Positions 1 to 62,448 of a stretch of DNA of 64,000 bases are shown here, piece after piece. The stretch is taken from IMG/VR virus record IMGVR_UViG_2648501802_000002. One strand, given 5' to 3'. The number at the start of each line of letters is the position of its first letter. Within the stretch, counting starts at the first letter, position 1. Position numbers and translations under genes: made by a program. This DNA is from a virus (lineage: Duplodnaviria; Heunggongvirae; Uroviricota; Caudoviricetes). The notes beneath the pieces are model-generated. The model saw only the letters and a list, made by a program, of their open reading frames with translations. It made no database searches and was not told where the DNA came from.

Positions 1-951
1 GCCATCAACAATAGTTGTCACAGCCTGCTTGTGCGCTTCTCCTGATAAAGCCTGCATCTGGACAAAATCATTGGCTGCCGCATTAAGCGCCGTCAGAACA
101 TTACGCATATCCGGATCAGGTTCTTCTGCAACCATCCTTACCAGGCGCGCATCCTTATATGCCTTGGCAAAGATCGCGTTTTGTATACGGTCTACAAGTT
201 GCCGCGTTGGTCGCCCATCTTCCGTTACAAGGCCAGCAGCCTGTGTGGCACCAACTTGCGTCATGAATCCGCGAATAAACGCGTCATTACTGCGGCTAAG
301 CAGATCTCCACTTTCTGACGGGTTAAACAACGCCATCATCGCCGGTGTTATGCTGTCGGCATCAACAAAAGCCTTTTCACTGGCTGCCATTTCCTGGAGA
401 TCAGAAATATTTGAGTCCTTGGCAAACTGAACACGGTCAGCCTTCGTTAACCGGCGGCGCACCAGTACCGGAGCCGTCATTGATTCAACCTTTTCAGGCC
501 GTATGCCGAATTCGGTCGCATGTTCAATCAGGTACTCCCGATACCGATCCGCATTACCGTCCTGATAGGCTTTAATGATCCCCATGGTCCGCCCATTACC
601 TGACTCAACGGCATTGTCCTCACCAATTATTGGCGCGCCATGGCTGGATAAACCGGAATCGGTAAGCTGGGCAGGACGCAAATCCTTGGATATCTGGTTG
701 ACCTGAAGAAGGCTGGATGCGCGGGTCCGGTCGCGCGGCTGAAGTTCCTGGGGATAGTCTGGATTAATTTTCCCATCCAGAGTATTGGATACCAAAAGAA
801 CTGAGGCATCGACGATATCAAACGCTGTTTTTACCTCGTCTCCCTTCGCTGTCACCACATACGAAACCCGCCCGTAATCGGGCAGGTTTTTTAGCAGCTC
901 GATCAGCGTTTCTATGCTGGTGGCCATCACCACCTGATCGCTTAAGCTCAT
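1..951 (-). CDS. Partial CDS (N-terminal part; runs off the window start); ParB/Srx-like N-terminal domain protein
   Basis: Manual minus-strand translation from ATG near 949-951 (MSLSDQVVMATSIETL...) stays open to position 1; motifs QPRDRTR and SGNGRT resemble the ParB/sulfiredoxin fold. Absent from the ORF track because there is no stop in the window. Confidence 0.45.
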   Translation of the reverse strand, partial: MSLSDQVVMATSIETLIELLKNLPDYGRVSYVVTAKGDEVKTAFDIVDASVLLVSNTLDGKINPDYPQELQPRDRTRASSLLQVNQISKDLRPAQLTDSGLSSHGAPIIGEDNAVESGNGRTMGIIKAYQDGNADRYREYLIEHATEFGIRPEKVESMTAPVLVRRRLTKADRVQFAKDSNISDLQEMAASEKAFVDADSITPAMMALFNPSESGDLLSRSNDAFIRGFMTQVGATQAAGLVTEDGRPTRQLVDRIQNAIFAKAYKDARLVRMVAEEPDPDMRNVLTALNAAANDFVQMQALSGEAHKQAVTTIVDG

Positions 952-963
952 CCCTGTTACGCC

Positions 964-1329
964 TTATGCTGCCTCTTTAATGTTGGCGGCTATCCATGCC
1001 GCCGTGTGCTGTTTAACCTGGTCCAGATCGATGTATGTGCCAACATATTGACTCAAGTCCTGCAACGTACCGATAAATGCATCGGTGCTCTGATCGACGA
1101 ATTTATCAGCCAGGAAATCAGCAACCAGTTTTGGCACACCATCATGTACCGAAGGTTGTTTTTCCTCGCCACTACCGCCGCCGGACGCGCCGTACCCCAT
1201 CTGTTGCATGATCTGGTCAATTTCATCGCTGATATCCAGCAACTCCATGCCACTCGCGGTAGCCGCTTTGGACATCAGAGCATCCAACTTATCGCTGAGA
1301 TCCATTAACTCAATAGCTGATAGTGTCAT
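964..1329 (-). CDS. Hypothetical small acidic protein (position of ddrA in a P1 dar-like operon)
   Basis: ORF track 121 aa; co-directional with and overlapping the stop of the upstream 639-aa gene. Confidence 0.5.
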   Translation of the reverse strand: MTLSAIELMDLSDKLDALMSKAATASGMELLDISDEIDQIMQQMGYGASGGGSGEEKQPSVHDGVPKLVADFLADKFVDQSTDAFIGTLQDLSQYVGTYIDLDQVKQHTAAWIAANIKEAA

Positions 1330-3245
1330 GCCGCTACCCCCGCTTTCTGGATTGCTACCAGCAGATCAGCCAGGTGGCGAGCTGCGCCGTTAACCAGCTC
1401 TTCGTTTTCCTCAAAACGTCCGGCAGCCTGAAGGGCTGCAATCGCTTCCCGGACATTGCCCCGGGCGTTACGGATCTCCGCCATGTCAGTGCTTTGTATA
1501 TCCATCACGTTATTGAGATATTCAATGGCTTTATTAGCCTCTGCATCTGCTTCGCTAACCGTTTCATCAGGCTGTGCCGGGGCCGGTTCTGGCTGAGTAA
1601 TCTCACCGACTTCGGCCTGCAATGCATTGATCATGCTCTGCACCATTTTCTCGGTGCCAGCGCCCCCAGGAAACGCAATATTGGGGAAAGTTTTTTGAAA
1701 CTGAGTTTTCAGCATTACGCGGAACTCGTCTGGTGAGCTGGTGGCCAGCTCCAGAGCTTTTTGTGCATATTTGCCAAACGGACCATTAGTAAGTGTCTTC
1801 GCCAGGAAGTCGAAAGAATCCTCGCGAGGCAATAACTTCAGGTCGTACTCACTCATTTGCTGATCAGAAAGCGGGGTATCGTAAGTAGCAATGCCGTAGC
1901 GTGCATATTCATAATACGGGTCACCTTCATCAGGGCGCGGCAGAATTGCTTTGTTACCTTCAGGTATTGCGCCAGGGGCCGCCGGACGCATTTGCAGGGC
2001 ATATCGATATGCACCTACAGAGACTTCTGGTTCAGGCGAAGAGCTACCGGTATCCTCCGCTGGTTCAGGCTCGACGTTTTCCGGTTTATGTTCTTCTGGT
2101 TGGACCAGGTATTCCGATACATTACCCGCTTTATAGGCTTTAAACAGCTTGCCGATCGCATCTGCCATGTCCACACCCTGTATGGATTTAGCCTTGATCA
2201 TGTATACGCTGCCATCCGGATCGGTTAACTGGATATACCCTTCGCCGCCCCCAATGAATTGCTTCATTGATGCACCATTACTGAGCGTCACTTCCCCGTC
2301 CATATGCATACGATTTTTGATACTGGCAAGGCGATCCGTCAGCGCGCGAGAGTGCCCACCAGTCATCCCCGCTGGAGCAATGGTATCGCGCCCACCAGTG
2401 CGATTGAGCTGATCAATCTCCGTCTGCAAACGCTCATTCTCTTCATAAAGAGAATCCGCTTCCGATGCAACAGCGTTAATTTTCTGCTCCAGATCTGCCT
2501 TCTGCCCTTCTACCGCTGCCACCTGATCCGCGAGGTCGCTCATGGCATCCTCTTTCTGGTCACTGTCAGCCTGTAGTTGGGTTATTTCATCAACAAGGGC
2601 TTTTTTCTTCTTCTGCGCACGCTGGAATTTTGCCGAGTTTTTCTCTGCAAGGTTGGCAAGTTTCATGGTGACCTGCGCCAGCGTCATATCACGTCCACTC
2701 ATCGGAGCAACGGTGTGAGTAACGTCTTTTTTATTCAGTAAGAACTGGAAAGCAACCAGCGTATCGCTATTGGTGATCCGGTTTTCCGCTGTCGGGCTAT
2801 GAAACAGAATGCTGATAGTCTGACCATCACTGAGCGGAATAATGGCTGGCAGGACTGGCAGCCCGTTAACGTTACGTGCCCGGCCAATTTCAGCGCCGCC
2901 GATCGCGCGCGCGCCGCTCTGGGCCACATCCCCCGTTTTATCACTCCCCGCAGAGATTCCGGTACCATTCAGCTTCTGGTTCAATGCCCGGACAAATGCC
3001 TGCATGGTCCGGTGTAACTGCAAACGAGTAGAACTAATCGCCTCCAATAAATCCGTAGCACACCAGTGGATCGGCGTGTCATAGAAGAACGTTGCCTCGA
3101 TTTCCTCCAGGGTGTTGGATTCCGTCATCAGATAGCGGTCCTGACCAGCCATTAATGCGCGATATTCATCATCAGTCACCGGCGGGGGAAGCACGTCAAG
3201 CCCCGGCTTAATCGTCACCCCTTTATTGATATTGAACTGTTCCAT
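1326..3245 (-). CDS. Large coiled-coil protein, candidate DarA-like antirestriction / internal virion protein
   Basis: ORF track 639 aa; central coiled-coil (LQADSDQKEDAMSDLADQVAAVEGQKADLEQK); shares a domain with the upstream 203-aa protein (DGQxIxI...KNSAKFQ). The size and the paralogous upstream fragment fit P1 hdf-darA from memory; not verified by alignment. Confidence 0.5.
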   Translation of the reverse strand: MEQFNINKGVTIKPGLDVLPPPVTDDEYRALMAGQDRYLMTESNTLEEIEATFFYDTPIHWCATDLLEAISSTRLQLHRTMQAFVRALNQKLNGTGISAGSDKTGDVAQSGARAIGGAEIGRARNVNGLPVLPAIIPLSDGQTISILFHSPTAENRITNSDTLVAFQFLLNKKDVTHTVAPMSGRDMTLAQVTMKLANLAEKNSAKFQRAQKKKKALVDEITQLQADSDQKEDAMSDLADQVAAVEGQKADLEQKINAVASEADSLYEENERLQTEIDQLNRTGGRDTIAPAGMTGGHSRALTDRLASIKNRMHMDGEVTLSNGASMKQFIGGGEGYIQLTDPDGSVYMIKAKSIQGVDMADAIGKLFKAYKAGNVSEYLVQPEEHKPENVEPEPAEDTGSSSPEPEVSVGAYRYALQMRPAAPGAIPEGNKAILPRPDEGDPYYEYARYGIATYDTPLSDQQMSEYDLKLLPREDSFDFLAKTLTNGPFGKYAQKALELATSSPDEFRVMLKTQFQKTFPNIAFPGGAGTEKMVQSMINALQAEVGEITQPEPAPAQPDETVSEADAEANKAIEYLNNVMDIQSTDMAEIRNARGNVREAIAALQAAGRFEENEELVNGAARHLADLLVAIQKAGVAA

Positions 3246-3246
3246 G

Positions 3247-3858
3247 TTAATTTCCTGCTTTCAGTTGCTTAAGACGGCGTTTGAGTTCGCCATTCCGTGC
3301 CTTTTCGTTATTGAGTCGGCCCGTCTCCTTATCCAACTTCGCCCGCAAATCTGTGATCTGCTGTTGATTGAAAGACACCGAATTCTGCGCGGACTTATAA
3401 GCGGCAACCACCTGAGCATTCCGCTGTTTTGCTTCTTGCAGGCGCTGAAAGTTGGATTTAACTGCCGGTTTCTTGTCTACCGGATTGGCAACACGCTTCG
3501 CTTTGGCGATCAGTGATTTCTGGAATTTCGCAGAGTTTTTGCGGGCCGCTTGCCCCATGACGGTACCAAGCGTCTTGATATCTGGCGACTGTGCGTTAGG
3601 AATAGATTTTCCATTCAGTTTCACAGCCGATATATCACCAGTATCGTTTACCTGTATGGCAAGAATTTGTCCGTCGTTAAGAACCAGTTTTGCGGTTTTA
3701 ACTTTAACGCCATCTTTCGTTGTTGCGCGGTTGCTGGAGTCAACCTCAATTACCGTAACACCGGTTTTATTGATCGCCGCGATAAGGGATTTCAGCCCCT
3801 TTTCATTAACCTGGTCAAAATCGACCGTTGCATACTTATTTTTCGTCATCTGACACAT
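3247..3858 (-). CDS. Hdf-like protein (homolog of a fragment of the 639-aa protein)
   Basis: ORF track 203 aa; motif ...LNDGQILAIQVND...ARKNSAKFQ matches ...LSDGQTISILFHS...AEKNSAKFQ in the downstream 639-aa protein. Confidence 0.5.
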   Translation of the reverse strand: MCQMTKNKYATVDFDQVNEKGLKSLIAAINKTGVTVIEVDSSNRATTKDGVKVKTAKLVLNDGQILAIQVNDTGDISAVKLNGKSIPNAQSPDIKTLGTVMGQAARKNSAKFQKSLIAKAKRVANPVDKKPAVKSNFQRLQEAKQRNAQVVAAYKSAQNSVSFNQQQITDLRAKLDKETGRLNNEKARNGELKRRLKQLKAGN

Positions 3859-4279
3859 CCTGTGCGAGATTTATTACGTAACTTCTGCGGATTTGCTGAG
3901 TAACAGGGAAAATCCGATACAACGGGTTAATGAACGAGTCGCCATGCGTAACCATGACGTTGAAATGCCACAGTCGCTCTCCTTTACCCATATATTCAGT
4001 GGGTATGTACAACCATTCACTGTTTTCGCCCTGTTCAGCCGACGTCAGACAACGTTGTTCGCCTTCAATCACTGTCGTCGGCTTCTGAACATCGCGGATC
4101 CAATATCTGACCGTTGCGCCGCGCAAAAACGGGAATTTAGACCGGTATTTGAACGGCACCCGAATGAAACCCGGTTTAATTTCCACATCACCAAGTTCTA
4201 AATGCGTGATGTCCTTGCGTTTTAGCAAATAGCGATCGGCTAAGGCTAACGCAAGAACGCATACACCCCAGCCAATCAT
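3836..4279 (-). CDS. Hypothetical protein (position of P1 lydB-like gene)
   Basis: ORF track 147 aa; overlaps neighbours in operon fashion. Confidence 0.45.
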   Translation of the reverse strand: MIGWGVCVLALALADRYLLKRKDITHLELGDVEIKPGFIRVPFKYRSKFPFLRGATVRYWIRDVQKPTTVIEGEQRCLTSAEQGENSEWLYIPTEYMGKGERLWHFNVMVTHGDSFINPLYRIFPVTQQIRRSYVINLAQDVSDDEK

Positions 4280-4605
4280 TTCCCACCTCCCTTTTTCACC
4301 AAACTTGTAAGAACATTCAGAATGCTATCGATATTCACTCGTTTCATCCCTGAAATCACCTCATGACCGTTATTGCTGGCTATCGTTACCATTAAGTACG
4401 TAATTGATAACTCCCAGCCTTCGTGTTGCCCCAATAGGTACGCCACCGCGCCAGCTGTCACTGCAACAAAGATCTCCGTAACCAATCCCAACAAGTTGCC
4501 AGACTGGCGACCATCTCGGACATCCATCAGGAACGTGCCTATCCCACCAATTACTGAAAGCAGGAGCGCAATAGCAACTGGAGCTAATTCCTGTGTGTCA
4601 AGCAC
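4276..4605 (-). CDS. Small membrane protein, holin-like (P1 LydA-like position)
   Basis: ORF track 109 aa; hydrophobic helices (VAIALLLSVIGGIGTFLM; IFVAVTAGAVAYLLG) and charged C-terminus; first gene of a co-directional operon. Confidence 0.45.
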   Translation of the reverse strand: MLDTQELAPVAIALLLSVIGGIGTFLMDVRDGRQSGNLLGLVTEIFVAVTAGAVAYLLGQHEGWELSITYLMVTIASNNGHEVISGMKRVNIDSILNVLTSLVKKGGGK

Positions 4606-4705: not shown

Positions 4706-5177
4706 GTGTGCGCCCAGCATGGGCGCGATCTTGGAGGTGAAAGCCCTCCCGCGAGCTGACCACAGCGAGCGAAAGGAAGTGCAACTGCGTGAGGGCGGCT
4801 AGGCGTGGGGAGGAAGCACGGAATGAACCCGTGAGCCGATGAACAAGAATCGGATATGAGGCGCGATGGAGCAAGGCGAGCAGGCACATCACTGCGAAGC
4901 TTTCGTGACAAAGTCGCGTAGATCCGACGGTTGTGCGGGGAAGGATCGCGTTCTTACCTGGGGAGTTCTCGCCTCATGCCTGAAAGGGCAACGTCGTAAG
5001 ACGGAGCGAGAAGTCAGCAGAGGCCGTAGTAGTCAGGACTCCGACGAAGGGCCGAACGAGAAGGAAAGCCAAAAGATATGACTCTTGACAGGACATTGCG
5101 TCAGAAGCCGGGGAAGCCCGGTACGGACCCGCATGCCGGGTGGTGTGGCAGGGGCGCAGCCTTGTGCTCCCCCCTAT
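4706..5177 (+). ncRNA. Candidate ORF-less group II intron-like structured RNA (possibly a decayed remnant)
   Basis: GC-rich segment with no credible ORF. Starts GTGCGCCCAGCATGGG (group II GUGYG 5' consensus, close to Ll.LtrB GUGCGCCCAGAUAGGG from memory) directly 3' of a perfect 11-bp hairpin (CATCCTCCACG-N10-CGTGGAGGATG, 4675-4706). Many GNRA-like loops; ends ...CUCCCCCCUAU (AY 3' end). No RT/IEP ORF, and I could not pick out an unambiguous domain V by eye. Confidence 0.3.
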
Positions 5178-5603
5178 GCCGATCAAGCAGAACATTGTGC
5201 TGGGCCTCTGACGCATCTCCTTGATGGTCTTGGCATCGTGCTTAAGTGGATTGGTGTCGTCTCTGATAGGCTCATGGAGGCAGAATGAAACTCAAAAATC
5301 CGGGACAGCACGCAAAACAGGCTGCACAAAAAGCGCAGGTTGCGTAGGAGTGGAATCCCGCTCCCAAAAAATGGTGCAGAAGTTGCGGCAGTGGTCATCC
5401 GACGCACTGGAAAATAACAAACCCGCCGTGACCAGAATCGGAGGCCTGAGGGAGTGACCGTAAAACCGGATAACCCAGGCAGCAAATACCCGCTGGATGA
5501 GGCATGGTTCCGGCAGATAATACCGAAAACCGCCAGACACACTGGATAATCAGTAGAAATAACCCATTAAAATCATTATAATAATTGGGCACATTATTAT
5601 ATT

Positions 5604-6167
5604 ATGCTGAATAATAGAGACATGAATATTAATGAACTTAAAGACTGTATTCACTATGAAGTAATCGGTAGCGAGCGTCCTTTCTCCTGGCGAAAGGCAA
5701 TTGTTCGCGCAATAAAACATAGAAGAGTTCGTTATTTATTTTGGTGGCGCATAGCCAAATACCTTTTTGATAAAGGCGGATACTGTCGGAAGATTGCGGG
5801 GAAAATGGAACGTTTCATTCTTGATAAATATAGTGTAACAGTCCCTTTAACTGTAAATATAGGGAAAGGCTTTGATATTTCTTATCTCAACGGTGTTGTT
5901 ATCGGTCACAAAGTAACCATTGGTGAAAATTGTTCAATAAAACCAGGGGTAACTATTGGGCTACGTGGTGATTTTAATGATATGGATATTGTTATAGGAC
6001 ATAATGTGACCATTGGTTGTAATGCCACCATTCTTGGTGGCAAAGTGCGTATAGGAAACAATGTCACAATAGGTGCTCATGCATTGGTATTGCATGATAT
6101 TCCTGATGATTCAACATTCATCACTAAATTTCAGTCTGAAGTTATCTGCTCGTCCTCTTGCACATAA
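5604..6167 (+). CDS. Hexapeptide-repeat (left-handed beta-helix) acetyltransferase, WcaF/LacA-like; moron
   Basis: ORF track 187 aa; hexapeptide repeats ([22 protein letters not shown]...[33 protein letters not shown]); AT-rich island; convergent with tfa; TATAAT-like box near 5577. Confidence 0.8.
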
Positions 6168-43746: not shown

Positions 43747-44682
43747 TTTTCCTCACATATGTCATATAGTAAAGGATTATATATACCGTTGTTTTGGACG
43801 CTCAAACAGCGAATCAGATCAAATAAAACGCACATTTGTTAACATTTACACAAAGTCTGCGTGGGATATTCTGAAAGAATATCCATAATGTGGAGAGAAT
43901 CTATTGAAGTGCATGGTGCCGGGTGCCTCCCGGTGAACAAAATGTTCGTGATACCTGTCGGCGACAGAAAAGGTTAATGGTATCACCCCACCGCACAGGG
44001 GGATTCACCATGCAGGAGTTTTCTTAGCAAACTCACTGCGCGCCCGGCAACTCCCAACCACATAAAATGCGGAGTTTGTGGTATTTATGCATATAACTCG
44101 CAGGAATTATCTTAAAAAACTGATGTCGATCCGGATTAAAAAGAAGCAGGTCATCATCAGATGACTGGAAAAAAGGAAAACAAAAAATACTCATCATACA
44201 GTTTTGATTGCAGGGATGAGCCTGCTATGCACAATATGCAGAATATAAGCAAGATAAAAATATGCAGGCATATTATTTCGGATTTTGTTATTAACACAAC
44301 CTTTTTAATAATCATTTGGCATACAATAAACCAGCCCAAAAAGAACCGCCTAAACAGGCGGTTGGTCAATACAAAGGATGCTTCGTCTTTATTATAGTAA
44401 TCTGAGGCGTCGAGTGTCTTGTATCAGACAACATATTGTCCCGCTAAACAGCGAATTACAAACCACCCTGCAATGATCTCTCATCTCATTTTATATGAGT
44501 TGACGACATCAGGATAACGCATCATCAGCCCCTGCCAAGAAATATCAAAACTCCCGCCAGCAATGTGTTATCACAATATTGTAAAAAAAACACAGCACCG
44601 AAACTATAACTGGTCTCTGTTATAATTTGGAGCAGAAAGACCAGTTGCCCAACTAGCAGCATTCTCCCCTGCTTTCCTGACG

Positions 44683-46218: not shown

Positions 46219-46717
46219 TTCTCAATCTCTCGATGGCGCAGTGCAGCAGATGCCAGTTGTTCAAGCTAGCACGCAAATTGTAAACCAGAATGCCAGGAAA
46301 AAACAAAACCCGCCGAAGCTGGTTGTGTGCGGTTGCGTTGAAGTCTCCTAGCCAAAGAGTAGCGGTGACCACTCCCCGCCGATAATCTTAGTTGTTTAAT
46401 TTCGTAAGCTAACTAGGCTAAAAGCTCTCTGTTGTCTGCCTGTTGTACAATTAACAAAATGAACAACGAACTAGATATACCAACGCCAGAATGGTGCAAC
46501 AAATCCCAAACAACACAGCAATGCAACAATAACATATGTTATTTTCCTCTCACGGGATTCAGTCCTGAATTCTCATAAAGCTAATCTTTTTTTAAAAACA
46601 TACTGTTAGATCACATGCACTTTCTTTCTTAACATCGTTGACTTCGCATGCGAAGCGTTTAAAATCAACAATTTGCACTTAAGGTATTTATTTTCCCAAA
46701 CACATAGAGAGTAAATT

Positions 46718-48109
46718 ATGACTGAGAACACGACTCCAACAGCAGACTTTAGTCCTAGTAAAAGATTTTTTGTGAGTATGCTAACTCGAGATATCGACTT
46801 AAACGATGCCATACTTGATCTGCTTGATAACTGCGTCGATGGGGCTTTACGTACAATAAAAGACACAAAAAAAACTTCAAAACCATATGAAGGATTTTAT
46901 GCGAAACTTACGATTAATAAAGATGTCTTTATTATAGAAGACAATTGCGGAGGTATCCCTAAAAGCTTCCGAGAATATGCTTTTAAAATGGGACGACCCC
47001 ATCAAAAAGAAGAAGAAAATGAAGGCACCGTTGGCGTCTATGGTATTGGTATGAAAAGAGCCATTTTTAAAATGGGTAGAGATTGCTCAATACAATCGAA
47101 TAATCCCGATGGCGCATTCACTGTAGATATAACACCTGATTGGATCGATGGTGATGGTTGGAAAATACCGATGCACGAGAGTGACTATGATAACAAAAAT
47201 CCAACAGGCACAACTATAGAGATAAAAAAACTCCATTCTAATGTGGCACAAAAATTTAATGAGAGCACATATCTTACTGATCTCTTTTTACAGATAAAAC
47301 ACTCATTGTCATTTATTATTCAAAAAGGATTTAAAATAGAATTAAATGGAGTTGTTGTTGAACATAATCCGATTAACATCATAACTGATCATTCTAAAAT
47401 AGAACCATACATATATAAAGCTAAAATAGACGATGTTGATATCGATTTAGTTGTTGGCTTCTATAAAAATTTAGAAGATGACAATGATGATGTTTTAGAA
47501 AAAAGGAGTTCTGATGATGCTGGATGGACTGTCATTTGCAATGACCGCGTTGTTCTATATTGTGATAAGACACATCTCACAGGTTGGGGCTTTGCTAATG
47601 TACCAAGGTTTCATACCCAATTTATAGCAATTTCTGGGGTTGTTCGCTTTACCAGTAAAAACCCAGAAAAATTACCAATAACAACAACGAAACGAGGTGT
47701 CGATCTTAGTTCTACATTGTACAATGATGTACGAAATAAAATGATTGAAGGGATGATGCATTTTATTCGATTCACCAATCAGTGGAAAGGTGAGCATCTT
47801 GAAGAAGGGAAAAAATTACTTAAGTCAGCTCAGTCACATGAAGCTCAATCTTTATTTGAAATTACCCCACAATCAACTCCAGAAGATAAAAAAAATAACT
47901 GGTCCAACCCTAATAGAAACAAAAATGAGTGGCGATATACACCTAAGCTGCCTACCCCAGTAAAAAAAAGCTCTACTGTACGAATAATCTTCACCAGAGA
48001 GAAAGAAGATGTTAAAATTTTATCTAAATATTTCTTTGGACATGAAGATGCTAGCGCTTCTGATGTGGGGATGCAATGCTTTGATACGGTGATTGAAGAG
48101 GTGAAGTGA
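46718..48109 (+). CDS. MORC/MutL-like GHKL (Bergerat-fold) ATPase with C-terminal region of unknown function
   Basis: ORF track 463 aa; N-box LDLLDNCVDGA, G1 box IIEDNCGGIP, G2 box GVYGIGMKRAIF; low-GC island; opposite strand to all flanking phage genes. Confidence 0.8.
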   Translation: MTENTTPTADFSPSKRFFVSMLTRDIDLNDAILDLLDNCVDGALRTIKDTKKTSKPYEGFYAKLTINKDVFIIEDNCGGIPKSFREYAFKMGRPHQKEEENEGTVGVYGIGMKRAIFKMGRDCSIQSNNPDGAFTVDITPDWIDGDGWKIPMHESDYDNKNPTGTTIEIKKLHSNVAQKFNESTYLTDLFLQIKHSLSFIIQKGFKIELNGVVVEHNPINIITDHSKIEPYIYKAKIDDVDIDLVVGFYKNLEDDNDDVLEKRSSDDAGWTVICNDRVVLYCDKTHLTGWGFANVPRFHTQFIAISGVVRFTSKNPEKLPITTTKRGVDLSSTLYNDVRNKMIEGMMHFIRFTNQWKGEHLEEGKKLLKSAQSHEAQSLFEITPQSTPEDKKNNWSNPNRNKNEWRYTPKLPTPVKKSSTVRIIFTREKEDVKILSKYFFGHEDASASDVGMQCFDTVIEEVK

Positions 48110-49098
48110 TGTCTGGACAATACATTCCCTATCACTTAAGGCATAATAAGTCTATTGATAGAGAGATTTTTCTCGAAAGCCTAAACCTCTTAAGCAAAAG
48201 ACTAAATATTCAAGAATATACATATATAGGTTTTGGTGGTCCGATGCTTGAAGATTTTAGAATCATGCATAATCGTATCGCTCTTTCTGATATGATTTCT
48301 CTCGAAGAACAAGAGTCTACTCACATCAGACAAAAATATAATTTGCCTTATAATTGTATTGATTGTAAGCTAATATCAGCTCATGACTTTATTCTTGATT
48401 ATAGTTTTTCTAAACCATCAATAACATGGTTAGACTATGCCTCCCCGAAAAAAATACAAACGGATCTAGATGATATACACTTACTAAGTACTAAAGTAAG
48501 CTCTTTTGATATTTTGAAGGTCACCTTCCCCATAAATCCTAGTTCTTATTACCAACGTAGAGTTGGAGAAAGTTTAGATATTTTTAAAGAAGCTTTTATT
48601 AATTCATTAAAATCATTGCTTGGGAAAAAGTATCTTGATTTTAATCTTCAGATATCAAATGCAGATCTTTCAGATCGTAAGATTAAAGCTCTTTTAATAC
48701 GAATTATTACAAACGCTTTTAGATCAGCAATAGAACGTGGTCTTTCAGGACGTAAGGATAAGATTCAGTATTACCCATTATCTTTAAATCAATATAATGA
48801 TGGCAGTCATACCATGTTGACAATATCAGGTTTTTTCTCCTCAGAACAAGAATATATAGAGTTATCTAAGGCATGCGACCTTTCTAACTGGCAATTTTAT
48901 TCAACAAATTGGGAAGACGTGCAAGAAATAGCAATACCAACACTAACAATTAAAGAAAAGATAAATTTAGATAGTAAACTGCCTGATAAAGAAGCATATC
49001 AGGCAGCCGCTGAAGAGTTCTCTTTAAACGAAAATGAACGGGATAACTATTATAAATACTATAGGTTATACCCTAACTTCCAAAGAATTATGGTTTAA
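48109..49098 (+). CDS. Hypothetical protein coupled to the GHKL ATPase (candidate effector/partner)
   Basis: ORF track 48106..49098; ATG overlaps the upstream stop (TGATG); 329 aa with no motif I can assign; low GC. Confidence 0.7.
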   Translation: MSGQYIPYHLRHNKSIDREIFLESLNLLSKRLNIQEYTYIGFGGPMLEDFRIMHNRIALSDMISLEEQESTHIRQKYNLPYNCIDCKLISAHDFILDYSFSKPSITWLDYASPKKIQTDLDDIHLLSTKVSSFDILKVTFPINPSSYYQRRVGESLDIFKEAFINSLKSLLGKKYLDFNLQISNADLSDRKIKALLIRIITNAFRSAIERGLSGRKDKIQYYPLSLNQYNDGSHTMLTISGFFSSEQEYIELSKACDLSNWQFYSTNWEDVQEIAIPTLTIKEKINLDSKLPDKEAYQAAAEEFSLNENERDNYYKYYRLYPNFQRIMV

Positions 49099-50217
49099 AT
49101 ATTCGGGCTGTACTCTTTTATTTAATAAATTGTACAGCCCCTTTAATATATATTCAGCAACTATTGGTGACACGCTATTTCCTATTTGTCTGAAACTATG
49201 CCATTTAGTTACATGAAAGCGAAACCAATCAGGGAAGCCTTGTAATCTAGCAGCTTCTCTTGGTGTAATCACTCTTGGATGATAAGGGTGGATCGGCCTG
49301 ACGGCTTGAAAGCTTCCTTTATCTCTAGCGGTTCCCGCCCTTAAAGTCGGGCAAAAACCATTTGGATCTAATCTTGTAGATCTTGAAATTTTATCAGTTT
49401 CCCCAAAAGATAAGGAAGCATAACGCTCTTGGACGATTTTGCTATGTAATGTTCCGGTACATCCAGATATGATATTATTTTTTAACTTAGCGATCGATTC
49501 TGTATCACCAACATTCCGAGGGATCTGCCCCCATAATTTTTCATAAAATCCCCCTTTTCGATCTTTTTTAATTGTTCGCCAACTCTCAGAGTCTGATTGC
49601 CAATTGGCATCGATAATATCTGGTAATCCATACAAAGCATCTTTTACAGTAACCGGATCAATCATTTTAGGCATAAATACTTCATCTGAAATATCAAGCT
49701 TCAATGATTTTTTTACACCGATAAAAAAATATCTAGTTCGAATAGTTGGAGCACCATAATCAGATGCTTTTACCTTGATGGGATCAAGAATATCATAATC
49801 ACCGCTAACCAAATTAAATGCTTTATTTCTAATGCCAGAATATTTCTCTTGCATAATACCTGGAACATTTTCTGCCAAAAAGAATAATGGCTGTAATTCT
49901 GATACTAAACGGTAGAAATGCATGTAAAGCTGATTCCTGCTATCATCAGGATTCCCCTTGCCTATTGAACTAAATCCTTGGCACGGAGGACCGCCAATAA
50001 TACCATCTATGGGCATATCGTTTTTAAAAAAACCCTTAATTATTTCTGCATTTAGTAAAGAAACATCTTCTTGGACGTGCAAACTTCTTGGAAAATTAAT
50101 TGCGTGAGTATTAATAGCATGTTGATCAATTTCAACTGCCATTTTAACATCAAATCCAGCACGTGCAGCACCAAGACTTAGACCTCCAACGCCAGAAAAC
50201 AAATCTATTACATTCAT
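49066..50217 (-). CDS. DNA cytosine-5 methyltransferase (Dcm-type)
   Basis: ORF track 383 aa; motif I DLFSGVGGLSLG, motif IV GGPPCQGFS, motif VI ENVPG; convergent with the GHKL operon, 3' ends overlapping. Confidence 0.9.
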   Translation of the reverse strand: MNVIDLFSGVGGLSLGAARAGFDVKMAVEIDQHAINTHAINFPRSLHVQEDVSLLNAEIIKGFFKNDMPIDGIIGGPPCQGFSSIGKGNPDDSRNQLYMHFYRLVSELQPLFFLAENVPGIMQEKYSGIRNKAFNLVSGDYDILDPIKVKASDYGAPTIRTRYFFIGVKKSLKLDISDEVFMPKMIDPVTVKDALYGLPDIIDANWQSDSESWRTIKKDRKGGFYEKLWGQIPRNVGDTESIAKLKNNIISGCTGTLHSKIVQERYASLSFGETDKISRSTRLDPNGFCPTLRAGTARDKGSFQAVRPIHPYHPRVITPREAARLQGFPDWFRFHVTKWHSFRQIGNSVSPIVAEYILKGLYNLLNKRVQPEYLNHNSLEVRV

Positions 50218-50648
50218 ATAGTTGCAACGTCTCTTATTAGTTTCTATGTATTATAACACAACTGTTCTTGATGTTTTAACCCCATAAGATAACCTCATAA
50301 AGGCTATCCCTTGAAAATACCGGATCGCATAAATTTAATCTTTCAAAACTACTTGTCTATTAATCGAGCAATTTAAGGTTTTTTTAGTCATGTCGATACC
50401 GACATAGTTAACTAAACCCATTTCATCGTCCAACAAATGGGGGTAATACACTTTGATTTATAGTCGGGTGGGTTTTTCTCTATCTGCCTTTGGTGTTCAT
50501 GCCCAAGGCAGATAGCCTCAAGCACCCGCAGCAATTCTACTTAACTATCCTTTTCCCGCAAATCGTTTTTATCCCCAGCGGCAAATCGAATACACAACCA
50601 GCGCCACCGCCATCGCAATTCCTACCGTTGTGAATGCTTCAGTCCAGG

Positions 50649-50906
50649 TCATCGTGAAACATCCTCCACGCTTATAAGTCCGCTTCGCTCCAGGTAGTCC
50701 ATCACTTTATCCGGCAATTTGCAGCCCGGTTTCGCTTTCTTCAGTTGACTAACCAATTGTTTAACCAGCATTGTCAATTCGCGAACTTGTTTCCCGGGCT
50801 CCCCTTTGCCCTGAAGCAGGGCAGCGCGGCAAGCGTTCCATCCCTCAGCATATGTTTCAGTTACACCATCGAGATGGCATGTAAGCAAATCCATTTCTTC
50901 CGGCAC
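50649..50906 (-). CDS. Hypothetical protein (possibly the 3' part of an amber-interrupted longer ORF starting near 51152)
   Basis: ORF track 85 aa; same frame is open upstream to a TAG at about 50973-50975, preceded by a 58-codon ORF from ATG at about 51150-51152. Confidence 0.45.
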   Translation of the reverse strand: MPEEMDLLTCHLDGVTETYAEGWNACRAALLQGKGEPGKQVRELTMLVKQLVSQLKKAKPGCKLPDKVMDYLERSGLISVEDVSR

Positions 50907-62072: not shown

Positions 62073-62267
62073 ATGCGGTATGAAAAAGTCAAACCATGCC
62101 CTTTTTGTGGTTGTCTATCAGTAACGGTAAAAGCCATTTCAGGATATTACCGCGCGAAGTGTAACGGATGCGAATCCCGAACCGGCTATGGTGGAAGTGA
62201 AAAAGAAGCACTCGAACGATGGAATAAACGAACCACTGGAAATAATAATGGAGGTGTTCATGTATAA
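62073..62267 (+). CDS. ralR: Restriction alleviation protein RalR (Lar family zinc ribbon)
   Basis: ORF track 62058..62267; MRYEKVKPCPFCGC...AKCNGCESRTGYGGSEKEALERWNKR; CxxC...CxxC. Confidence 0.8.
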   Translation: MRYEKVKPCPFCGCLSVTVKAISGYYRAKCNGCESRTGYGGSEKEALERWNKRTTGNNNGGVHV

Positions 62268-62448
62268 AATTACCGCCACTATTGAAAAGGAAGGTGGCAC
62301 TCCTACTAACTGGACAAGGTACTCAAAAACAAAATTAACCAAATCAGAATGCGAAAAAATGCTCTCAGGTAAAAAAGAAGCAGGCGGTTCCAGAGAGCAG
62401 AAAGTAAAACTGATAAATTTTAATTGCGAGAAACTTCAGTCGTCGTGA
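62260..62448 (+). CDS. ydaC: YdaC-like small protein
   Basis: ORF track 62188..62448; start placed at the ATG preceded by GGAGG (MYKITATIEKEGG...), overlapping the ralR stop. Confidence 0.5.
   Translation: MYKITATIEKEGGTPTNWTRYSKTKLTKSECEKMLSGKKEAGGSREQKVKLINFNCEKLQSS

Follow-up and report, generated by a model that had tools for sequence, protein, structure and literature searches.

The three genes at positions 46,504 to 50,469 of IMG/VR record IMGVR_UViG_2648501802_000002 (Caudoviricetes; the whole stretch of 64,000 nucleotides is called the window here) form a cassette that is real, widespread, and apparently uncharacterised, with a methylation-based design built from a MORC-like ATPase (gene 1) and a second methyltransferase-fold protein (gene 2) beside a Dcm-type C5-cytosine methyltransferase (MTase). 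We tentatively favor reading the block as a self-contained, horizontally mobile, methylation-keyed anti-phage or anti-invader cassette, similar to restriction-modification (R-M) but without a nuclease of its own, a reading that we hold to be plausible though somewhat short of probable. We infer the defence role and the mechanism from the folds of the proteins, the linkage of the genes, the mobility of the block, and its placement. The 3 open reading frames (ORFs) were reproduced exactly where a first-pass annotation had put them, and the island of low GC content that it had described was confirmed, with values of 0.31-0.38 over positions 46250-50500 against 0.46-0.52 in the flanks and the minimum of the entire 64-kb window in the cassette stretch (Table 1).

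Proteins encoded by the cassette

Gene 1 matched the HATPase_c_3 profile with an E-value of 2.9e-9, above the gathering score, which bears out its proposed identity as a GHKL ATPase. GHKL proteins are recognized by motifs I-III (ExxxNxxD, DxGxG, and GxxGxG), which make up the ATP lid and binding site, and the 3 Bergerat boxes pointed out earlier in gene 1 are indeed present and invariant in 110 homologues (N38, D41, D75-G79, and G106-K113). The position of the catalytic Glu in motif I (D34-L-L-D-N38) is held by an Asp, D34, in all 110 sequences, and this substitution suggests altered, possibly slow ATP hydrolysis, as in a slow switch and not a motor. About 250 residues beyond the boxes had been described as free of any recognizable motif; this did not hold, and the ~330 residues that follow the ATP-binding boxes comprise an S5 transducer domain of ~200 residues and a family-specific extension of ~130, the latter mostly helical and without a conserved acidic or histidine cluster. 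An S5-fold transducer domain with its conserved Lys following the GHKL domain is the mark of MORC/MutL/topoisomerase-type proteins and identifies gene 1 as a MORC-type GHKL+S5 ATPase. The family is conserved over its full length, with ~45% identity between phyla. Because the MORC-specific S5 motif GhXhhpXXRhl was absent, by inspection, from residues 300-330 (GVVRFTSKNPEKLPITTTKRG) and the gene 1 profile reached MORC3 in PDB only at an E-value of 0.035, we file the protein, by its sequence, as paraMORC-like and not as MORC sensu stricto. Its architecture and neighborhoods agree with the description of paraMORC1 by Iyer, Abhiman, and Aravind (2008, PMC2292703), a comparison made with the published description.

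Gene 2, previously called unassignable, is a full-length member of PF20553 (Methyltransf_35), matching the family over residues 2-329 with an E-value of 2e-89 and 300 bits against a cut-off of 27. This family comprises about 2,300 clusters at 50% identity. The predicted structure of gene 2 has the fold of class-I S-adenosylmethionine (SAM)-dependent methyltransferases, with the seven-strand Rossmann-like arrangement, the Gly-rich motif I, and strands 2 and 4 that end in an acidic residue and in the motif IV Asp, respectively, and the model thus presents gene 2 as a SAM-methyltransferase-fold protein with intact cofactor-binding motifs. Compared with the viral fold library BFVD, the model returned generic methyltransferase matches only. 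The top weak matches (TM ~0.4) were giant-virus proteins annotated as chromodomain-containing, and what they have in common with the gene 2 model is probably just the methyltransferase core. Nuclease folds, which the first-pass annotation had proposed to look for in gene 2 and in the C-terminus of gene 1 with profile hidden Markov models and structure prediction, were found in neither protein by Pfam, NCBIfam, or PADLOC profiles or by fold.

The third gene encodes a protein matching PF00145 (E 2.6e-61) as well as TIGR00675, and its residues 1-367 are identical to PDB 3G7U, a structural-genomics crystal structure. The translation shows the catalytic motifs GGPPCQGFS, ENV, RTR, and GN, and all ten motifs by which C5-cytosine DNA methyltransferases of the Dcm type are recognized, including the PCQ Cys and ENV, are present. 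Our literature search found no paper on the 3G7U methylase.

Linkage of the three genes across phyla and viruses

Two samples were used, one of 80 reference-genome loci and one of 54 viral contigs from IMG/VR. The genomic loci represent more than 10 phyla, with cyanobacteria, several classes of proteobacteria, Acidobacteria, Verrucomicrobia, Chloroflexi, Latescibacteria, Poribacteria, Bacteroidota, and Firmicutes among them. A homologue of gene 1 was identified directly 5' of gene 2 in 79 of the 80 genomic loci, mostly with a 4-nt overlap, and gene 1 was fragmented in the sole exception. In the window, the ATG of gene 2 and the TGA of gene 1 have one base in common (48109), and the two genes stand as the coupled pair that had been proposed. 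Genes 1 and 2 also co-evolve, with a Spearman correlation of 0.45. At locus L027 (7900-9353), gene 1 is split into three ORFs beside an intact gene 2 and an intact Dcm gene, and the locus looks like a decaying copy of the cassette.

A Dcm-type methylase adjoins the pair in 65 of the 80 genomic loci; 32 of these methylase genes lie upstream and 8 downstream on the strand of the pair, 24 are downstream and convergent, and 1 is upstream on the other strand. As this linkage survives rearrangement into four orientations, it argues for a functional unit. The full trio was present in 52 of the 54 viral contigs and convergent in 49, with a 3' overlap of 32-49 nt in 46 of these 49. The adjacency in both samples, together with arrival in the same insertion block (see below), supports a functional link between the MTase and the gene 1-gene 2 pair and agrees with the earlier view of the three genes as one candidate module. 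One subfamily takes in most of the linked Dcm enzymes, with 34 of 59 showing 49% or more identity to that of the window. No Dcm gene accompanies the pair in 15 of the 80 loci, 10 of them cyanobacterial; in Scytonema (L008) and two Nostoc genomes (L010 and L015), the pair has the same NDH/antiporter-type genes on either side and no Dcm gene within 10 kb, and it looks vertically inherited rather than mobile.

Beyond the trio, the only recurrent neighbors at the 80 loci were Vsr (PF03852, E 3.4e-29) in 28 (35%), HNH_2 in 5, HNH_5 in 4, and a second, longer MORC-like GHKL protein next to Dcm in 9; the window itself has no Vsr gene. The Vsr genes and the HNH genes (together 9 of 80 loci, ~11%) point to DNA as the substrate, and no nuclease was conserved with the cassette among the 80 loci. 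In a Rhodoferax metagenome-assembled genome (L017, 11092-15709), two divergent gene 1-gene 2 pairs converge on one Dcm gene. The second of these pairs encodes proteins of 443 aa and 324 aa, the latter matching PF20553 at an E-value of 2.4e-74, and after it comes an HNH_5-like protein that is shared by four loci.

Insertion into a hok/sok locus and placement in phages

The block lies in an E. coli prophage, and homology to related prophages ends on the left at ~46341-46503 and restarts on the right at 50470. An intact hok/sok locus (L149) aligns to positions 46298-46503 and 50470-50652 of the window, and the two pieces, 147 bp apart in L149, are 3966 bp apart here; in a related prophage, hokD occupies the same site. 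The hok-like ORF on the left carries a frameshift or premature stop relative to Hok proteins of 41-50 aa, and the sok-like RNA on the right, which scores 50.2 bits (E 2.4e-9), below the gathering score of 59, aligns to intact hok/sok loci from 50470 on. Because both hok/sok halves flank the block and rejoin in intact loci of other E. coli genomes, the alignments indicate that the trio arrived as a single insertion, which split and inactivated the hok/sok toxin-antitoxin locus.

Table 1. Coordinates of the cassette, its genes and promoter-region features, and the flanking hok/sok remnants in the window
Feature	Position	Strand	Remarks
Low-GC insertion block, whole three-gene cassette	46504..50469	.	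Boundaries approximate, within a few tens of bases
Gene 1	46718-48109	+	ORF of 463 aa
Gene 2	48109-49098	+	ORF of 329/330 aa; ATG at 48109, in-frame GTG at 48106
C5-cytosine methyltransferase (Dcm type)	49066-50217	-	ORF of 383 aa
Sigma-70-like promoter of genes 1-2	46638..46665	+	TTGACT-16 nt-TAAAAT, 10/12 matches
Perfect 14-bp palindrome CTTCGCATGCGAAG	46642-46655	.	Overlaps the -35 hexamer and spacer of the genes 1-2 promoter
Promoter-like site of the MTase gene	50250..50279	-	TTAAAA-18 nt-TATAAT with upstream TG (extended -10), 10/12 matches
Degenerate hok-like toxin ORF, left remnant	46413..46535	-	85.5% identity to the Hok/Gef locus in L148; not part of the cassette
Sok-like antitoxin RNA/hok leader, right remnant	50403..50527	-	Rfam RF01794; not part of the cassette

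The cassette is present in E. coli O157:H7 Sakai and EDL933. Lambdoid prophages of E. coli, Klebsiella, and Yersinia hold the trio at the equivalent position of the nin region, and in Enterobacter it lies at the edge of a prophage. Many of the 54 viral contigs are ~30-36 kb long, and the one such contig that was annotated (L106) is a P2-like prophage in which the trio is flanked by the portal gene Q and by the DinI/gpA genes. The gpQ-gpA interval of P2 is the old/tin site, which has been shown to be a defence hotspot with other validated defence systems (PMC9122126). Table S5A of that study gives the arrangement 'DNA_methylase + HATPase_c_3 + hypothetical' for this hotspot, and after a peptide search and a comparison of E. 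coli genomes, the tie between this entry and the trio is the matching domain string alone. The L106 variant was absent from complete E. coli genomes. In the Pseudomonas filamentous Pf phage PfAC20 (L146, 13.6 kb), the trio makes up the first three ORFs, all co-directional, at positions 280-3711 in the accessory end. The cassette therewith occupies known defence-cargo sites of at least three phage types (lambdoid, P2-like, and filamentous), and a defence role is in keeping with its occurrence at the P2 old/tin hotspot and at further cargo sites of prophages.

Two of these phages carry further genes annotated for DNA modification. PfAC20 has a second, short ORF at 5438-6082 that is annotated as 'DNA cytosine methyltransferase' (214 aa, no Pfam match). 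The lambdoid prophage of Yersinia enterocolitica that holds the trio (L091) encodes a Mom-like protein (PF25680) at 3716-4444, near the lysis genes, and with the trio and the Mom-like protein, this phage would have two DNA-modification functions.

Orientation, promoters, and expression

The phage operon lies on the minus strand and includes DnaC-like, DUF1367, DUF1364, and Q genes. All 3 cassette genes had been thought to interrupt it; this is true of genes 1 and 2, which alone run against the operon, but not of the MTase gene, which is co-directional with it. Both hexamers of the sigma-70-like promoter of genes 1-2 are kept in a Klebsiella locus (L088) and a viral locus (L103). The promoter-like site of the MTase gene lies 33 nt 5' of the MTase ATG.

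The palindrome that had been reported next to TTGACT is real, but it is longer than stated, being a 14-mer, and it is not conserved in the closest relatives. Its arms are retained in L088 (CTTCCCTAGAGAAG), and the repeat is gone in L103 (CATCCCTATCGAAG). The palindrome is possibly an operator, for which the sequence evidence is weak; partly retained in Klebsiella and lost in a relative with a gene 2 that is 85% identical, it was rejected as a conserved operator and is an unreliable feature. A further palindrome, TGCATTTTGATGCA, recurs ~88-110 nt 5' of gene 1 in L109, L116-L122, and L145. The viral contigs with TGCATTTTGATGCA resemble the P2-like prophage L106, and this palindrome may belong to the phage backbone, not to the cassette.

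In the Sakai lysogen, ECs1954 and ECs1955 belong to one microarray expression cluster and show a 2.6- to 3.2-fold drop on exit from exponential growth (PMC2241611). The two are thus co-regulated, and the gene pair is transcribed from the resident prophage.

Relation to described systems

Gene 1 and gene 2 had no match in PADLOC-DB v2.0.0 (BREX, DISARM, Druantia, Mza, Shedu, and others), and the statement that the locus fits no named defence system still stands for PADLOC v2 and the searchable literature. The BREX/DISARM models of PADLOC match only Dcm, through the generic C5-MTase models DrmMII/DruM, and the match to NCBIfam MzaB is negligible (E 0.037; 12 bits, where the cut-off is 850). Vibrio WonAB was considered as a match and rejected, being an unrelated combination of an ABC ATPase and a nuclease. 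Protein names in public sources were generic throughout, and searches of the literature on ECs1953-1955, PF20553, 3G7U, paraMORC, and GHKL together with anti-phage found no functional study.

The layout had been likened to a classic R-M pair. The cassette resembles Type II R-M in its convergent Dcm-type MTase, which shares 33 nt with gene 2 at the 3' ends, and in its mobility, low GC content, and separate promoters, and this part of the likeness holds. A Type II system, however, has an endonuclease (PD-(D/E)xK, HNH, GIY-YIG, or PLD) of the same specificity as its MTase, whereas the unit opposing the MTase here consists of an ATPase and a MTase-fold protein, with no restriction-endonuclease fold, by profiles and predicted folds, in either gene 2 or the gene 1 C-terminus and no sign of matched specificity in co-variation with the target recognition domain (TRD) of Dcm.

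Prokaryotic MORC/paraMORC ATPases were predicted to act in R-M systems by comparative genomics (PMC2292703), and we found no experimental follow-up of this prediction. The neighborhoods of the cassette are like those of paraMORC1, with Dcm, Vsr, HNH endonucleases, and sometimes a second MORC-like GHKL protein (9 of 80 loci, plus Serratia). The cassette differs in the PF20553 companion, which accompanies gene 1 in nearly every locus of our sample and does not appear in the text of that paper, and in lacking the helicases and nucleases that the paper assumes to be associated. VcSduA, a validated anti-phage protein of Shedu type I-D, is a paraMORC3 in which the GHKL ATPase is fused to a DUF4263 nuclease (PMC12137116); as with gene 1, a GHKL ATPase would serve as the regulatory or clamp module of a phage-defence protein, but VcSduA has its own PD-(D/E)xK nuclease and needs no methylase, whereas gene 1, free of any nuclease domain, has a MTase-fold protein as its partner.

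With BREX and DISARM, the cassette shares a logic only, in which a MTase marks self and an ATPase effector acts on unmarked DNA without a canonical restriction endonuclease. There is no homology, the cassette has three small genes against 4-8 large ones, and its mark would be 5-methylcytosine (m5C) from a separate Dcm, with a second MTase-fold protein besides. Eukaryotic MORC and SMCHD1, which act downstream of DNA methylation, are ~15% identical to gene 1, which differs from them in having no CW or chromatin-reader domains, no evident GhXhhpXXRhl motif, and an invariant Asp in place of the catalytic Glu.

Proposed mechanism and alternatives

If the block is a methylation-keyed defence cassette, Dcm would mark the resident DNA with m5C. 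A dimer of gene 1 would form an ATP-gated DNA clamp, as in the MORC, MutL, and topoisomerase ATPases, and the C-terminal extension of gene 1 would bind gene 2 as the DNA-engaging or effector subunit of a complex that acts on DNA without the mark. As the conserved core has no nuclease, interference would probably be nuclease-independent, by analogy with BREX; clamping might block replication or transcription, or a harmful methyl mark might be added, and alternatively the job might be passed to optional HNH partners or host nucleases. VcSduA (PMC12137116) and the predicted tie between paraMORC and R-M (PMC2292703) are precedents for GHKL proteins in defence. It is also possible, if unlikely, that the MORC-type clamp and the SAM-methyltransferase effector read cytosine methylation and silence or mark unmethylated invader DNA with no cutting at all.

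Several results weigh against the defence reading. The tie to defence is one of association alone (the hotspot, the cargo sites, and the Vsr and HNH neighbors), neither gene 1 nor gene 2 has a nuclease fold, and the nearest structural neighbors of gene 2 are rRNA/tRNA methyltransferases (RsmD, Trm1, RlmI, RlmO, and RlmJ), not DNA methyltransferases. Dcm tracks genes 1-2 weakly (0.04-0.13), ~10 loci have a Dcm of another subfamily, and co-variation with the Dcm TRD is missing throughout gene 1 and gene 2 (rho 0.00-0.17), in a test that is weak if the linked Dcm enzymes mostly share one specificity; given the subfamily swaps and the missing co-variation, a sequence-matched restriction partner is hard to reconcile with the data. 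Nor does any Dcm gene lie within 10 kb of the pair at the ten cyanobacterial loci. The family is also absent from the PADLOC v2 models, perhaps because it is untested, perhaps because it was tested elsewhere without effect.

The cassette could instead be a modification-only (anti-restriction or epigenetic) module, in which Dcm and gene 2 modify DNA, the GHKL protein is a loader or processivity factor, and there is no restriction arm. Such a module would set an epigenetic state, or it would guard the genome of the phage or the host against restriction in a new host. Two MTase-fold proteins and no nuclease, in a phage-borne cassette with Dcm co-directional with the phage early operon, are in keeping with this, and orphan phage MTases are a known anti-restriction strategy (PMC12707154). 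However, a promoter on the opposite strand is dedicated to genes 1-2, which the lysogen expresses, the pair persists without Dcm in the vertically inherited cyanobacterial loci, the hotspot carries the exclusion genes old and tin along with validated defence systems, and optional HNH partners are not expected in a purely protective module. We consider this explanation rather unlikely.

Slightly less likely again is abortive infection, with gene 2 methylating rRNA or tRNA and thereby shutting down translation, the GHKL protein as sensor or switch, and Dcm as a fellow traveller or trigger-related accessory. The structural matches of gene 2 named above speak for it, as do the 15 loci in which the pair lacks Dcm and the near absence of co-evolution between Dcm and the pair, and effectors that target tRNA or translation are common in prophage defence (PMC12137116). 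It leaves unexplained the Dcm linkage of 80-96% in four orientations and the association with Vsr and HNH. GHKL+S5 modules elsewhere, moreover, act as DNA clamps, and to our knowledge those of the MORC type (MORC, MutL, and topoisomerase II ATPases) do so in every characterised case.

E. coli MutL stimulates Vsr, and gene 1 might likewise be a MutL-like helper of Vsr-type T:G repair after deamination of m5C, with gene 2 as an auxiliary. The Vsr genes at 28 of 80 loci would suit this form of m5C housekeeping, and the MutL-Vsr analogy has been drawn before (PMC2292703). We regard it as improbable, since the window and 65% of the loci have no Vsr, the role of gene 2 is left unexplained, cyanobacteria hold the pair without Dcm, and phage defence hotspots and a 13.6-kb inovirus are an odd place for a repair accessory. 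That the MTase is an orphan phage enzyme beside an independent two-gene operon, as the weak co-evolution and the Dcm-less loci might suggest, is very improbable and already disfavored, given adjacency in 65 of 80 and 52 of 54 loci over phyla and orientations, the one insertion block that holds all 3 genes, and the convergent 3' overlap in 46 of 49 viral loci; C5-MTase genes number only a few per genome, and chance adjacency should therefore be far rarer.

Other features of the window

At the far left of the window there appears to be a group II intron, with Rfam domains D1-D4 at 4789-5052 on the plus strand (RF02001, 95.5 bits; RF01998, 46.8 bits). On the minus strand, we identified the small RNA (sRNA) STnc100 at 43857-44043 (86.6 bits), downstream of the Q-like gene, and the RalA antitoxin sRNA at 62266-62444 (212 bits), near the recE/racC side. 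ARAGORN found no tRNA in the window; Sakai Sp10 has the argO and ileZ tRNAs downstream of its Q gene.

Implications for MORC-like ATPases and PF20553

It is still debated how ATP-driven DNA clamping by eukaryotic MORCs is coupled to cytosine methylation. The tie between MORC-like ATPases and R-M was proposed by comparative genomics in 2008, and we found no sign of its having been tested since. With its size of 4 kb, its presence in the model pathogens Sakai and EDL933, its crystallised methylase, and its spread over three phage types and more than 10 phyla, the cassette offers a tractable E. coli system for a MORC-like ATPase on methylated DNA. Should its role prove to be defence, the known repertoire would gain a nuclease-free design with two methyltransferase folds, and a function would be given to PF20553, a family at present named by guesswork only. 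If the clamp and its methyltransferase partner do silence or mark unmethylated invader DNA, the cassette would be the bacterial counterpart of the link between MORC and DNA-methylation-dependent silencing in eukaryotes, and it might even be related to the ancestor of that link; gene 2 might be the source of a DNA (or RNA) methyl mark that is new to defence.

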